Below, piece after piece: positions 3,107-39,150 of a DNA stretch of 64,000 nucleotides. The notes below the pieces were generated by a model. The model made no database searches. It was given only the letters and a program-made list of their open reading frames with translations, and was not told the DNA's origin. Source of the stretch: an uncultured Planctomycetia bacterium (GTDB lineage: Bacteria > Planctomycetota > MHYJ01 > WSZJ01 > CAZYRM01); the NCBI GenBank assembly GCA_964649705.1, contig CAZYRM010000015.1, forward strand, positions 1,119 through 65,118, given 5' to 3'. The position numbers and the translations under genes were made by a program. How positions within the stretch are numbered: position 1 is the first letter of the stretch; each line of letters opens with the position of its first letter.

Positions 3107-3901
3107 CTACTTCGACCGCGAGCGCGTCAGGGCCTTCGCCCAGGCGGCGTCCTCGGGTGAGAGGGGAGGGACGGGCGGCTTGCTGTAGTCGAGCATCGCC
3201 CAGTAGACCCCGGACCTGTAGACGTTCTCCATGAGAGACTGCAAGTCCACGGCCAGATCGGGGTCCCCCTTCAGCAGGGGAACGGGGAAGCGCGGCAGGC
3301 GATCCCGGAGCTTGAGCGGATAGACGTCTGCGCGCGATCGCCGGCCGGCGCGGTGGATGGCCACCAGGTAGTCGTACGGGCGGTGGGGGCGAAGCGCCCT
3401 GGGCGGCACGGCCACGGTGTGCTCCCCGCCGCGAAGGAGGTCGATCTCGATCAGATGGACGTCCGAGGACAGCACCTCGCGCTGCCTCTGGACGTACTTC
3501 TCGTAGCCGTCCGATCCTGGTGACTCGTTCGTCGGGGAGAGGACCTCGATCACGGTCACCAACCGTCCCAGGGCGCCGCCGAGCCGGATCTCGACGTTCG
3601 CCTGTTCCAGCTCCAGTGGGAGCGCTTCCAGGCTCACCGCCGGGTCGATCGTCGCTCCGCCAGCCCTCTTCATCGGCCTTCGCGATTCACGATACACGAT
3701 GACGTCCGGCCCGATAGGTCTGTTCTCGGCGGCCTCGACGACAACTCGAAAGCTGTGCGTTGCCACGTAACGCGGCGCCGTTCTTGCCGAGATGTTCCAT
3801 GCGAGCAGGCTGATGAGGCCGTGATGCGCGCTCGGCCAGAAGACAGGATCCTCGAGCCAGGGGTCCATACCTGGAAACAGGTACCGCCTCTTTCTCGCCA
3901 T
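3107..3901 (-). CDS. DUF4058 family protein (PD-(D/E)xK/Uma2-like)
   Basis: FPGMDPWLE, IEVLSPTNE and HLIEIDLLRGG are typical of this family. Confidence 0.85.
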   Translation of the reverse strand: MARKRRYLFPGMDPWLEDPVFWPSAHHGLISLLAWNISARTAPRYVATHSFRVVVEAAENRPIGPDVIVYRESRRPMKRAGGATIDPAVSLEALPLELEQANVEIRLGGALGRLVTVIEVLSPTNESPGSDGYEKYVQRQREVLSSDVHLIEIDLLRGGEHTVAVPPRALRPHRPYDYLVAIHRAGRRSRADVYPLKLRDRLPRFPVPLLKGDPDLAVDLQSLMENVYRSGVYWAMLDYSKPPVPPLSPEDAAWAKALTRSRSK

Positions 3902-3945
3902 ACTACCGGATTCTACGCCCATGGCCGGACAGCCGCAAGTAGCCG

Positions 3946-3975
3946 CCCCCGCGGCTGACGGGGTGGCGCCCCGGC
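3946..3975. repeat. 30-bp direct repeat, copy 1
   Basis: CCCCCGCGGCTGACGGGGTGGCGCCCCGGC; 29/30 identical to 5150-5179. Confidence 0.9.
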
Positions 3976-4903: not shown

Positions 4904-5028
4904 TTCTCAACTCGCATTGATCAACAGAGGCTCAAGAGGCAAACCCCAAGGGCTGTTCCAGCGATGCGGGAGGCTACGGTTGAGGGATTTGAACTCTGTT
5001 GAGAAATGCACATTGCGAAATGAGAATT
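4895..5028. repeat. Degenerate long palindrome of heptamer type
   Basis: Arm 4895-4935 (aaatctcatttctcaactcgcattgatcaacagaggctcaa) pairs imperfectly with arm 4989-5028 (ttgaactctgttgagaaatgcacattgcgaaatgagaatt). Confidence 0.75.
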
Positions 5029-5149
5029 CCCGCGGATCCTGGTCGAAGCGCCGCCGAATCGACGACCGCATGAAGAATCCCGCCCGACACGGGCGGGGAG
5101 CCCAATTCCCTCTCTCCGGGCTCGTCCATGCGCGAGGGGGCGCGCTCTA

Positions 5150-5179
5150 CCCCCGCGGCTGACCGGGTGGCGCCCCGGC
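5150..5179. repeat. 30-bp direct repeat, copy 2
   Basis: CCCCCGCGGCTGACCGGGTGGCGCCCCGGC. Confidence 0.9.
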
Positions 5180-5241
5180 CCTTCCGCTCCGTCCCCCTCT
5201 TTACCCTTTCGCCGAATCCACCGGACCCACTCGCCGCCGGC

Positions 5242-5514
5242 CTAGCGGCAGCCCCCATGGACAGGCCACGAGTGCGTGTAGTAGTGGGTATCCAGGTAGA
5301 CCCGACGGTAATCGCCCGTGGGCCACGGGTCCACGCACCAACCGTACCCCGTGTGGGAGTGCGTGTGGCTCTCCCACCAGGTGGCACAGTGGCCGTGGCC
5401 GTGACAACTGCCGTGACCGTGACAGGAGCCGCAGGCCAACGCCTCCGGAGAGGCGTACAGGCTCACGCCAATGGCCATGACAGCGCCCACGAGAAGATTG
5501 CAGAGAGACCGCAT
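5242..5514 (-). CDS. Small secreted His/Cys/Trp-rich peptide (90 aa)
   Basis: AAAGGAG RBS upstream of ATG 5514; signal-like MRSLCNLLVGAVMAIGVSLYASPEALA, then CGSCHGHGSCHGHGHC... Confidence 0.75.
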   Translation of the reverse strand: MRSLCNLLVGAVMAIGVSLYASPEALACGSCHGHGSCHGHGHCATWWESHTHSHTGYGWCVDPWPTGDYRRVYLDTHYYTHSWPVHGGCR

Positions 5515-5616
5515 GGAAATCTCCTTTCGGATGACCGCGGCCGTCTCTCCAACAGCGCCTCGACCGGAATCCGAGGGTCCATTGATATGACAGCAGTTCG
5601 GGGCGGGTCCATGCGC

Positions 5617-5704
5617 GTTCCCCTTCCCCTTCCCGTTCCCCTTCCCTTTCCCAGCGCGTGAGAAGCGCTGGGAAGGGGAACGGGAAAGGGAACGGGAAGG
5701 GGAG
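5617..5704. repeat. Palindrome of tandem TTCCCN / NGGGAA hexamers
   Basis: Six TTCCCN units + GCGC, a short loop, then GCGC + six complementary units. Confidence 0.9.
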
Positions 5705-5714
5705 GGCGAGGGAC

Positions 5715-6398
5715 TCACACCCCCAGCCGTCCGAGAAGGCCCAGGAACCGGATCGTGTCCCGGATCGGGCGGATCTTACTCTTCTCCGTGCCGTAGACGG
5801 TGGAGACCTCCGCCTCGCGGATGCGGAAGCCGCGGCGGGCCGCGCGGACGAGGATCTCGCTCTCCAGGTCGAACCCCTCCGTCGTCACGGAAACGTCGCG
5901 GAGCACCCGCGCGCGAAAGAGGCGAAAGCCGGACTGCGTGTCGCCGATCCGACACCCCGCAGCCAGCGAGAGGACGGCCGACATCGTCCGGTTCGTCCAA
6001 CGGCGCACGAACGGCATCTCGCGCGGGTCCAGCCGCCGCGTCCCGACGACCACGTCCGCTCCCGTCCGCTCGGCGCACGCGATCAGCCGCGGGACCTCCT
6101 CCGGGAGGTGCTGTCCATCCGCGTCGAGCGTCAGGACCGGGTCGGCGCCGTTCGCAAGCGCCCAGGCGAACCCCGTCCTGAGCGCCCCGCCCTTGCCGCG
6201 GTTCCGCTCGTGGACGATGACGCGGGCGCCGGCCCCGCGCGCCTCGGCCGCCGTGCCGTCCGGGGAGCCGTCGTCGACGACGAGGACCTCCGATACCACG
6301 GCGCGCAGCCGTCCGACGACCTCGCCGACGCGTCCCTCCTCGCGGAAGGCCGGAACGATGGCAACCGCGTGCAAGCCGGCCTTGCCAGCGCCGTTCAC
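5715..6398 (-). CDS. Glycosyltransferase family 2 (polyprenol-phosphate sugar synthase-like)
   Basis: VPAFRE, VVDDGSPDGT, NRGKGGA, DADGQH, DTQSGFR. Confidence 0.93.
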   Translation of the reverse strand: MNGAGKAGLHAVAIVPAFREEGRVGEVVGRLRAVVSEVLVVDDGSPDGTAAEARGAGARVIVHERNRGKGGALRTGFAWALANGADPVLTLDADGQHLPEEVPRLIACAERTGADVVVGTRRLDPREMPFVRRWTNRTMSAVLSLAAGCRIGDTQSGFRLFRARVLRDVSVTTEGFDLESEILVRAARRGFRIREAEVSTVYGTEKSKIRPIRDTIRFLGLLGRLGV

Positions 6399-7045
6399 AG
6401 CAGGGTCCCGGGTCGGCGCGGGTACCCCTTGTAGGAGAAGTTCAGGTTGAAGAGGGCGACGACGGCCTCAAGCACCGCTCCCGCCACGCCGCGCGCCCAG
6501 GGCGGCACGCCGGCCTCCTCCTGGGACGGAAGCTCCTGCGGACAATCCACGACGCCCCACTCGGGCCGCCCGGGGTAGACGAGCCGCCCGTTCGAAGGGC
6601 CGCCCACGACGACCCGCGCGTGGACCTCGGTCGCGGCGAACCCGGGGCCGATCCCGACGATCATCGGGGCGTCGAGCGGGTCGGGCCGCGTCTCGTGAGG
6701 GACGCCGGCCGCGTCGACGAGGACGATGGGCAGGAACCTCTCCTTCACGTCCGCCGCGGGGTCGGCGAAGACGGGCACCATCCCGTCTCCCCAGATGTTC
6801 ACGAACTCGAAGTAGTATTCGGCCTTCTTCGCGCGGAGGCCCTCCACGTCGATCTCGCCTTGGAGGAGGGCGCCCGCGAACGTGGCCCGGGGGAACGGCG
6901 TGCGCGGCGTCGGGAGCTCGGTCAGGGCGACGCGCGGGATCCCTGCGCCGACGAGGCGGCGCGCGATCGCGGTCCCGGCGCGGCCCGCGCCGCGGACCAG
7001 GATCGAGAGGTCGGAGAGGATCTTGATGTCGGTGGGAGATGCCAT
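6395..7045 (-). CDS. YqeB/EF2563-like protein, internally shortened
   Basis: ILVRGAG..GTAIARRL, TELPTP, FAGALLQGEIDVEGLRA, IGPGF and the C-terminal VAGAVLEAV resemble YqeB. Confidence 0.6.
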   Translation of the reverse strand: MASPTDIKILSDLSILVRGAGRAGTAIARRLVGAGIPRVALTELPTPRTPFPRATFAGALLQGEIDVEGLRAKKAEYYFEFVNIWGDGMVPVFADPAADVKERFLPIVLVDAAGVPHETRPDPLDAPMIVGIGPGFAATEVHARVVVGGPSNGRLVYPGRPEWGVVDCPQELPSQEEAGVPPWARGVAGAVLEAVVALFNLNFSYKGYPRRPGTLL

Positions 7046-39047: not shown

Positions 39048-39150
39048 GGCCGAGCCCCGACAGGCCGAGCCCCGAAGGGGCGCCCCAAGTCAGCCAGGGG
39101 CGGAGCCCCTGGAACCACGTCAGGAGACGGAATGGAGCCCTGAAGGGGCG
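39048..39150. repeat. REP-like cluster of GC-rich hairpins
   Basis: GAGCCC(C/T)GAAGGGGCG at 39067 and 39135 flank the hairpin CCAGGGGC-GGA-GCCCCTGG at 39094-39112. Confidence 0.75.

Follow-up and report, generated by a model that had tools for sequence, protein, structure and literature searches.

Small, ligand-rich proteins serve bacterial metal handling in several guises. PcoE and SilE are small Sec-exported proteins thought to sequester copper or silver in the periplasm, and the bacterial metallothioneins SmtA and BmtA, along with the exported Csp1, bind several metal ions by means of clustered cysteines or cysteines together with histidines (PMC7558416). CutF is an exported Cys/His peptide that acts as a copper sensor, and CutF-like proteins are delineated by a length of less than 150 amino acids (aa), a signal peptide, a Cys/His motif, a C-terminal PP, a match to DUF2946 and a regulated same-strand gene downstream of them (PMC9973294). 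Here, we describe a gene for a 90-aa protein on the minus strand of a 64,000-nucleotide (nt) stretch of DNA (hereinafter the window) from an uncultured Planctomycetia bacterium (contig CAZYRM010000015.1). On the strength of its sequence and that of its homologues, we tentatively posit, as the best reading of the locus, that its product might be a Sec-exported mini-protein, periplasmic or extracellular, to which metal ions bind.

Among 5.8 billion proteins, a word-indexed search recovered seven homologues of 85–103 aa with 69–84% identity, and a metagenome scan added two further loci, L011 (88%) and L013 (66%). There are hence nine further distinct homologues at 66–88% identity, which make up ten sequences with the window gene. 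The homologues come throughout from metagenomes, several of which are labelled groundwater, and the window's own DNA is also present on a Hainich groundwater contig, on which the public gene calls include the 90-aa product. Every indel underlying the length differences among the homologues is in frame. The Nei-Gojobori (NG86) ratio of non-synonymous to synonymous divergence (dN/dS) lies between 0.16 and 0.85 over 28 pairs, and the pooled pN/pS is 0.44 for the whole coding sequence (CDS), being 0.36 in the signal peptide, 0.54 in the variable Cys/His tract and 0.38 in the C-terminal domain. At 80–95% identity, the open reading frame (ORF) and its 5′ leader are matched by contigs of three metatranscriptomes, one of soil and two of sediment, drawn from three studies; these are assembled contigs of relatives, not of the window organism, and might include carried-over DNA. 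The earlier note on this DNA, made from its letters alone, had held that a genuine peptide should have homologues conserving its Cys/His pattern, be expressed and show a dN/dS away from 1. As it turns out, four Cys, three His and most of the aromatic residues are kept across the homologues, relatives are present in all three metatranscriptomes, and both the pairwise and the pooled ratios given above fall below 1. The homologues, the purifying selection and the relatives' transcripts thus support the note's proposal of a small exported Cys/His-rich protein: the gene is almost certainly real, is under purifying selection, is transcribed in relatives and has defined conserved and variable parts.

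Beyond these homologues the family stands alone. Its own cluster and one 802-aa protein, which is considered below, were all that a filter-free profile search recovered from 1.84 billion representatives. None of the eight alignment members tested against Pfam matched a family at E ≤ 10, and NCBIfam gave noise only (UreE at E 0.007 with 16 bits against a cutoff of 237, and an ExtKL-type model with 5 bits against a cutoff of 250). The family profile found a single 10-bit chance match among PDB sequences, and the species-representative genomes of GTDB held no relative of the 90-aa protein (searched with the family profile) or of the 216-aa protein encoded nearby. The family is therefore an orphan outside any described family, confined to one narrow lineage among the uncultured bacteria of groundwater and soil.

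The gene is an ORF running from ATG to TAG on the reverse complement of the window (Table 1) and codes for MRSLCNLLVGAVMAIGVSLYASPEALACGSCHGHGSCHGHGHCATWWESHTHSHTGYGWCVDPWPTGDYRRVYLDTHYYTHSWPVHGGCR, 90 aa in all. Its start at ATG 5514 with the AAAGGAG ribosome-binding site, as proposed earlier, is borne out by the identity of the Shine–Dalgarno sequence across the loci, by the homologues and by the distribution of G+C (GC) over codon positions, which in a window of 69% GC reaches 81% at the third position (GC3) as against 58% and 57% at the first and second. A longer ORF of 158 aa opening at GTG 5718 was rejected. Its extension is not coding because the GC is flat over its codon positions and because it runs through a long hairpin that is peculiar to the window and missing from every homologous locus; moreover, the in-frame indels and the dN/dS favor the 90-aa frame, and the RNA contigs already stop at 5548–5551. 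An antisense ORF of 177 aa was likewise set aside, with the codon-position GC, the in-frame indels and the dN/dS all pointing to the 90-aa frame.

Splitting the precursor at residue 27 yields the leader MRSLCNLLVGAVMAIGVSLYASPEALA and the mature part CGSCHGHGSCHGHGHCATWWESHTHSHTGYGWCVDPWPTGDYRRVYLDTHYYTHSWPVHGGCR. The latter has, in exact agreement with the earlier count, 11 His, 6 Cys, 5 Trp and 5 Tyr among its 63 residues (17% His and 10% Cys), in addition to 10 Gly. Together, His, Cys, Trp and Tyr account for 27 of the 63 positions, as compared to a mean of 3.6 ± 2.2 for the 73,056 six-frame windows of 63 residues in the 64-kb stretch; the runner-up locus reaches 14 of 63, making the 90-aa protein the most extreme in composition there. 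A tblastn search of the window with the mature peptide found no paralogue. The 18-nt DNA repeat reported earlier in this region is present, if imperfect (Table 1), and is missing in L011, the closest relative of the window gene.

The earlier recognition of a 27-aa signal-like leader holds up well: the three-part layout and the A-x-A are kept in 10 of the 10 sequences (with A-K-A in one homologue), the 17-residue core has a mean Kyte–Doolittle hydropathy of 1.99, and the basic MRS start, the core and A25-L26-A27 ahead of C28 are the features expected of a substrate of Sec and signal peptidase I. The cleavage after Ala27 is placed by the −3/−1 rule, which is a heuristic. The protein is probably exported via this leader. 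Bacterial lipoproteins instead carry a lipobox of the form [LVI][ASTVI][GAS]C directly after the hydrophobic core. The P-E-A-L-A-C of the window protein has Ala at −3, Glu at −4 and a polar c-region of seven residues, and one homologue has Lys at −2 (A-K-A-C), so that a lipoprotein was rejected.

The mature protein has two dissimilar parts. The invariant C28-x-x-C31 is followed by a hypervariable tract, made up of His, Cys, Gly, Gln and Pro, which spans 13–31 residues among the homologues, bears its own 6-residue duplication in the window protein and is modelled as disordered by AlphaFold2 (AF2), with a predicted local distance difference test score (pLDDT) below 50. The remainder is far more constant: W46, E48, S49, T51, H52, S53, H54, T55, Y57, C60, V61, D62, W64 and P65, as well as T66, V72, T76, Y78, Y79, T80, H81, P84, V85, G87 and R90, do not vary among the ten sequences, and every sequence has a Cys at 88 or 89, giving C28, C31, C60 and C88/89 as the conserved cysteines. 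The total number of Cys in the mature part nevertheless differs by homologue, being 4, 5, 6, 7, 8, 9 or 10, and the mature length spans 58–76 aa. Two positions alternate between potential ligands: position 50 between His (CAC/CAT) and Cys (TGC), and position 75 between Asp/Asn and Cys, with two nucleotide changes being needed both for the former exchange and for that of Asp (GAY) to Cys (TGC). The AF2 model from an eight-sequence alignment is weak (mean pLDDT 59.6) and shows two 18-residue strands, 43–60 and 71–88, with a pLDDT of 67–78. In a symmetric pairing of these strands, H/C50, H52 and H54 would lie opposite H81, Y79 and H/R77. When this model was compared with PDB by Foldseek, nothing matched at E ≤ 0.001; the search returned generic long β-hairpins of pore-forming toxins that are meaningless at such a pLDDT.

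Table 1. Features of the 90-aa protein gene and its surroundings; positions are those of the window.
Feature	Position	Strand	Description
CDS of the 90-aa protein	5242..5514	−	ATG 5514-5512, TAG 5244-5242; based on translation, GC3, homologues, in-frame indels and pN/pS
Signal peptide, residues 1-27 (putative)	5434..5514	−	n-region MRS, 17-residue hydrophobic core, c-region ASPEALA, A-x-A before Cys28
Cys/His tract, residues 28-45	5380..5433	−	invariant C28-x-x-C31, then hypervariable His/Cys/Gly stretch
Imperfect 18-nt tandem duplication	5392-5409 and 5410-5427	−	14/18 positions match (78%); encodes GSCHGH twice
C-terminal domain, residues 46-90	5245..5379	−	WWES(H/C)THSHT-x-Y-x-WCVDxWPT...THYYTH...PV-x-G-(C)C-R; predicted two-stranded β-hairpin
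Shine–Dalgarno sequence AAAGGAG	5521-5527	−	6 nt ahead of ATG; identical in 10/10 loci
Hairpin of 5′ untranslated region and start region	5500..5550	−	GGCCGCG pairs with UG of the start codon and CGGUC; GGA of the Shine–Dalgarno sequence with UCC
Conserved promoter/operator region	5551..5617	−	from GCGCATGGAC to TCAATGGACYCTCGGATTCCGGTCGAG
Structured 3′ untranslated region	5074..5241	−	helix 1, inner hairpins, GAGCCC/GGGCUC hairpin, terminator-like hairpin with AUUCUU
Helix 1	5226-5240 with 5126-5139	−	13 pairs (RNAalifold); encloses two hairpins
Terminator-like hairpin	5079-5098	−	found by terminator scan; compensatory changes present
Conserved tail beyond the terminator	5029..5073	−	AUGCGGUCGUCGAUUCGGCGGCGCUUCGACC...; p-distance 0.20; not a conserved ORF, as L003 and L013 have no ATG
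Copies of the 10-mer GCGCATGGAC	5124-5133 and 5607-5616	−	flank the ORF
Upstream hairpin	5618-5716		about 99 nt; arms 5614-5657 and 5665-5708
Gene of the 216-aa YqeB-like protein	6395-7045	−	match limited to 147 N-terminal positions out of the 256 in the YqeB model
DUF4058 gene	3107-3922	−	
Copy of GCCGGGGCGCCACCCGGTCAGCCGCGGGGG	3946-3975	−	30 nt, 29/30 identical
Acido-Lenti-1 RNA (RF01687)	39068-39112	−	42.7 bits; gathering score 37

Drawing these threads together, we propose that the locus would be a self-contained module of about 590 nt (5029–5617, minus strand), a monocistronic gene whose small exported product is restricted to the lineage. Its mRNA would start near 5550, and its 5′ end would fold onto the Shine–Dalgarno sequence and the start codon, leaving translation limited or gated. 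The 90-aa precursor would be exported by Sec and cut after Ala27 by signal peptidase I to free a 63-aa protein with Cys as its first residue. This would combine a flexible, fast-evolving Cys/His tract, anchored by the invariant N-terminal CxxC, with a conserved 45-residue β-hairpin having H/C50, H52 and H54 on one strand beside H/R77, Y79 and H81 on the other. The N-terminal CxxC, the His/Cys tract and the His-lined face of the hairpin might then, in the periplasm or extracellularly, provide the ligands for soft or borderline metals (Cu, Zn, Ni or Co), with the protein serving as a buffer, sponge or chaperone. Export and its cleavage site, the register of the fold, metal binding and the identity of the metal are all things that we infer.

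What speaks for metal binding is the enrichment in His and Cys, the invariance of C28, C31, C60, H52, H54 and H81, and the two-nucleotide swaps between ligand residues at positions 50 and 75. The number of Cys, being variable and often odd (4–10), does not agree with a purely structural disulfide scaffold. The hypervariable His/Cys tract also resembles the low-complexity metal-binding tails of known metal-handling proteins. Of the earlier suggestion of a Ni-, Cu- or Zn-binding, metallophore-like peptide, the metal binding survives as the best reading, whereas the term metallophore does not suit what appears to be a folded secreted protein. Several points weigh in the opposite direction. Searches of Pfam, NCBIfam and PDB (by sequence and by fold) gave no homology link to any metal protein, and the neighboring genes are not those of metal homeostasis. 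YHS and DUF3347 domains are usually linked to heavy-metal handling, and in the more divergent lineage a 242-aa protein with these is encoded 1–2.5 kb downstream, in L003 (2449-3177, plus strand) and L014 (14004-14732, plus strand); yet opposite-strand genes separate it from the 90-aa gene, and it has no counterpart near that gene in the window. The AF2 model is weak overall at its mean pLDDT of 59.6, with the cross-strand register being an assumption, and cysteines in an oxidizing compartment may simply form disulfides. Finally, the RNA support comes from relatives' assembled contigs, for which DNA carry-over is possible.

The homology between loci is not limited to the 273 nt of coding sequence; it covers the region from 5617 to about 5029, and that to L011, L012 and L013 ends at 5026–5029. 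The mean pairwise difference is 0.21 in the promoter region, as compared to 0.56 just upstream of it, and 0.14 in the 5′ untranslated region (UTR). Within the CDS it is 0.14 at non-synonymous and 0.33 at synonymous sites, both of which exceed the values in the core of the 3′ UTR (0.085 over the first 20 nt past the stop and 0.086 from +56 to +125 past it), and the unconstrained stretches beside the module reach 0.49–0.58. The promoter region is kept even in L010, where the sequence further upstream fails to align with that of the other loci. A sigma-70 scan of the locus found nothing on the minus strand, and we assign no promoter type; a sigma-54 or extracytoplasmic function (ECF) promoter was rejected upon inspection by eye, as the conserved TGGACYCTCGGATTCC has no GC at −12 and lies at the wrong distance from the RNA ends. 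The contigs from the three metatranscriptomes each stop at the base of the 5′ hairpin, whereas DNA contigs continue past it, which suggests a transcript start near 5550 as the candidate 5′ end. This hairpin is found in the minimum free energy folds of 10 of 10 loci, and RNAalifold gives it 15 pairs, nearly all of which are kept in all ten, with one compensatory change. Since the Shine–Dalgarno sequence and start codon are paired in the hairpin of each locus, the start region would thus be conserved in an occluded form.

Two further elements flank the ORF. The 10-mer GCGCATGGAC, part of an 11-nt identical stretch, occurs on either side of it, with both copies kept in the homologous loci, and about 63 nt after the downstream copy there is TTCATGCGGTC, an echo of TTCCATGCGGTC at the real start codon. 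The paired copies could be remnants of a promoter-start region that was long ago duplicated in tandem. As a regulatory site GCGCATGGAC was rejected, being not clearly enriched, with 14 occurrences in the window at no more than one mismatch against 7.6 ± 2.7 expected. The upstream hairpin lies between the stop codon of the preceding GT2 gene and the module; its 44-nt arms are 86% complementary and are built of GGGAAG/GGGAAC hexamer repeats, and it occurs in the window only, being missing from L003, L004, L006, L007, L008, L011 and L013. At about the same place L010 has an unrelated sequence with another inverted repeat, AACTCGGCATCTC...GAGATGCCGAGTT, recognized by eye; this site may tolerate or attract palindromic insertions. 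The only Rfam matches on the locus are spurious ones to microRNA precursors, caused by the upstream hairpin. The gene had earlier been placed between two palindromes: the upstream one (5614–5708) is real, as are several hairpins downstream, but the former is a strain-specific insertion of the window.

Upstream of the 90-aa gene, all loci with a visible flank show the same run of genes, namely those for transglutaminase-core/DUF3857/TPR proteins, then that for the 216-aa protein and then that for a GT2 of 220–227 aa, whose best NCBIfam matches (PpgS, AglJ and DPM-like) are all below cutoff. The 216-aa protein scores 80 bits against a cutoff of 220 with the YqeB model, that of selenium-dependent molybdenum cofactor maturation. 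We class it as a divergent, truncated YqeB-like protein that forms a pair with the small GT2. Its close relatives (75–100% identity) are found only in the same narrow clade, followed next by XdhC/YqeB-like proteins at 30–36%. As this neighbor is equally clade-restricted, the synteny reflects close kinship and is of no use for inferring function. Hence, the position at the end of a glycan/transglutaminase gene run, to which the earlier note had drawn attention, is a conserved linkage, but one that holds within a single narrow clade and says little about function. The downstream genes are less constant: the window, L004, L008 and L011 have a gene for a polyhydroxyalkanoate (PHA)-depolymerase-type esterase on the same strand, and in L003, L005, L013 and L014 the next gene is on the opposite strand. 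It codes for an acylphosphatase in L003, where the YHS/DUF3347 gene comes next, for an S41 peptidase in L013/L014, where genes for an acylphosphatase and the YHS protein follow, and for a directly adjacent histidine kinase in L005. Other neighbors encode a DUF4058 protein and histidine kinases. Directly after the esterase stop codon in the window lies a copy of the 3′ UTR segment GCCGGGGCGCCACCCGGTCAGCCGCGGGGG, at the edge of the DUF4058 gene; this gene is missing from the otherwise colinear L011, which suggests an insertion or recombination at that sequence. Farther away, the only match in the window at the Rfam gathering level is an Acido-Lenti-1 RNA, whose surroundings (about 90 nt) recur in L013 (227-316) at 86% identity; taken by itself, and as the sole taxonomic clue of this kind, it would point weakly to an acidobacterium or a relative of one.

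The conserved cysteines (C28, C31, C60 and C88/89) would also suit a disulfide-knotted secreted mini-protein without a role in metal binding, be it an inhibitor, an adhesin, a self-assembling surface protein or an antimicrobial peptide, and the inhibitor might even target the upstream papain-fold transglutaminase-like proteins, the genes of which remain syntenic. We consider this unlikely, though deserving of weight. The mature protein has many aromatic residues and a predicted abundance of β-structure, and the sole match outside the family in the 1.84 billion representatives is an 802-aa protein with 11 thyroglobulin type-1 repeats that has T.S.TGY.WCVDP in common with it. However, the likeness spans just 14 columns in a profile–profile comparison (hhalign), the E-value is inflated by nine repeats, and PF00086 (Thyroglobulin_1), which matches that 802-aa protein at 1e-111, matches no family member at E ≤ 10. 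Membership in that family was consequently rejected, with the domain of about 65 residues not being covered and the likeness being one of motif only. A disulfide scaffold is, furthermore, at odds with a Cys number that is variable and often odd, and it leaves the His enrichment and the His/Cys/Asp swaps unexplained; a bacteriocin would be expected to have immunity or export genes, of which none of the expected kind is nearby, and the synteny invoked for an inhibitor is uninformative with the carriers all being close relatives. That the protein is a minimal c-type cytochrome, with heme attached covalently to CGSCH at its mature N-terminus, is highly improbable. The motif noted earlier is indeed there, CxxCH occurs in 7 of 10 sequences, some long variants also have CX4CH, and Sec export is fitting; but in L010, L003 and L013 the residue at the His position is instead G, E or C, the last two of these loci lack any CXnCH motif, the motif would fall at residue +1 of the mature chain, and neither Pfam (8 members, E ≤ 10) nor NCBIfam gave a match to a cytochrome family. 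We find it equally hard to credit the earlier idea of a precursor of a ribosomally synthesized and post-translationally modified peptide (RiPP), for instance a glycocin glycosylated by the adjacent GT2, even if a small Cys-rich peptide is encoded directly downstream of the GT2 gene wherever the upstream flank is visible. The leader looks like a Sec signal peptide with AxA rather than a recognition leader, and the GT2, at 220–227 aa, is of the polyprenyl-phosphate sugar synthase type, not a SunS-like peptide glycosyltransferase. No gene for a radical-SAM protein, YcaO, LanM, a cyclase, a C39-ABC exporter or a thiol-disulfide oxidoreductase is nearby, and no gene of the maturase, peptide glycosyltransferase or C39 exporter kind lies within about 10 kb on the four long contigs (the window, L011, L013 and L014). 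The 90-aa gene also seems to have its own transcript start, and the stretch separating the module from the GT2 gene tolerates strain-specific hairpins.

The region past the stop codon raises another alternative, namely that the locus is mainly regulatory, a translation-coupled sensor or dual-function RNA. Translation and co-translational export of the peptide, which metal binding to the exported tract might slow in the manner of CutF, would set the dwell time of the ribosome at the stop codon, and this would choose between two folds of the 3′ UTR; the fold could then control stability, processing or the freeing of a small RNA from the 3′ UTR. No part of the locus is more conserved than the 3′ UTR core, and it travels with the ORF even where the downstream genes differ. 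The 5′ arm of helix 1 begins 2 nt past the stop codon. The first fold has 95% of its cells paired, with seven pairs changed on both sides, and an alternative, mutually exclusive local fold has 97% paired overall and 100% in its two hairpins (each over 8 loci); three coordinated substitutions in the L003/L013 lineage (alignment columns 83, 95 and 111) keep both folds, and many G-U pairs fit the sense strand only. CutF offers a precedent for an exported Cys/His peptide as a sensor (PMC9973294). Against this, the structure was derived from the same sequences that were used to score the pairing, the covariation comes from few events and essentially one, and shuffled sequence folds just as well as the window 3′ UTR (z = −0.41). 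Rfam gave no match for the 3′ UTR, and a search for RNA runs covering it found none. Moreover, the C-terminal domain is under purifying selection that a pure leader peptide would not need, and there is neither a proline-rich stalling motif nor any conserved gene downstream that could be regulated. Another small ORF in this region (MRSSIRRRFD...) was rejected, with L003 and L013 having early stops and no start codon for it. In sum, a mainly regulatory locus is quite improbable. Slightly less probable still would be a peptide-plus-RNA sensor of a new type, in which the metal-binding tract would modulate the translation or export of its own mRNA and the time that the ribosome spends at the stop codon would switch a bistable 3′ UTR element; were this doubtful idea true, a CutF-like principle would target the 3′ UTR of the transcript itself in place of a gene downstream, with mRNA fate or a 3′ UTR-derived small RNA as its output. 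The conserved flanks suggest post-transcriptional control outside the current RNA family libraries.

Annotation covers small exported proteins badly, and next to nothing is known of those in uncultured lineages. The 90-aa gene offers a clean case: a compact protein of about 60 residues, extreme in His, Cys, Trp and Tyr, with a conserved core and a fast-changing ligand-rich tail. Its practical weight is limited by the tiny size of the family and its confinement to a single clade known from metagenomes alone. Should the favored reading, that of an exported metal-binding mini-protein, be true, it would add a new minimal β-type scaffold to the periplasmic metal-handling proteins, and the mature protein could easily be made synthetically for metal-binding chemistry.

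How it would sit among the closest known systems can be gauged feature by feature. With the thyroglobulin type-1 domain (PF00086) it shares S/T-x-S/T-G-Y-x-W-C-V-D/N-P-x-T-G, a similar size and 4–6 Cys; however, the spacing of the remaining Cys differs, and the His-rich parts have no counterpart there. Its fit to the CutF-like (DUF2946) proteins extends to a length below 150 aa, a Sec signal with a Cys/His motif soon after it and a conserved RNA structure past the ORF. In contrast to CutF, which has PP in its last 15 residues, its tail ...THYYTHSWPVHGGCR has a single Pro, with PP being missing in all ten sequences; it has no DUF2946 match in Pfam and no conserved same-strand downstream gene with a Shine–Dalgarno sequence to unmask, and its conserved C-terminal domain is predicted to be folded. 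Membership in that group was therefore rejected on the PP motif, the DUF2946 match and the downstream gene, with size, signal and Cys/His motif in agreement. SmtA, BmtA and Csp1 are, like it, small proteins with clustered Cys/His ligands, but SmtA is cytosolic and Csp1 is a Tat-exported four-helix bundle, unlike the Sec leader and predicted β-hairpin of the 90-aa protein, which has no sequence match to them. In nickel superoxide dismutase (NiSOD), an N-terminal metal hook, the HCxxPC "Ni-hook", is made by the removal of a leader. Processing of the 90-aa protein would comparably expose Cys1-x-x-Cys4-His5, whose free amine and two thiolates could chelate a metal; the motif and context differ, and there is no superoxide dismutase domain. 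PcoE and SilE use His and Met ligands, are not known to contain Cys and are disordered-to-helical, as opposed to the Cys/His/Trp/Tyr-rich and predicted β-structure seen here, which has no sequence similarity to them by Pfam and no pco/sil context; as a small ligand-rich exported protein, it nevertheless fits the buffering role that we propose for it. Thus, the family itself is undescribed, and the 90-aa protein resembles a known kind, that of the small exported ligand-rich metal proteins.

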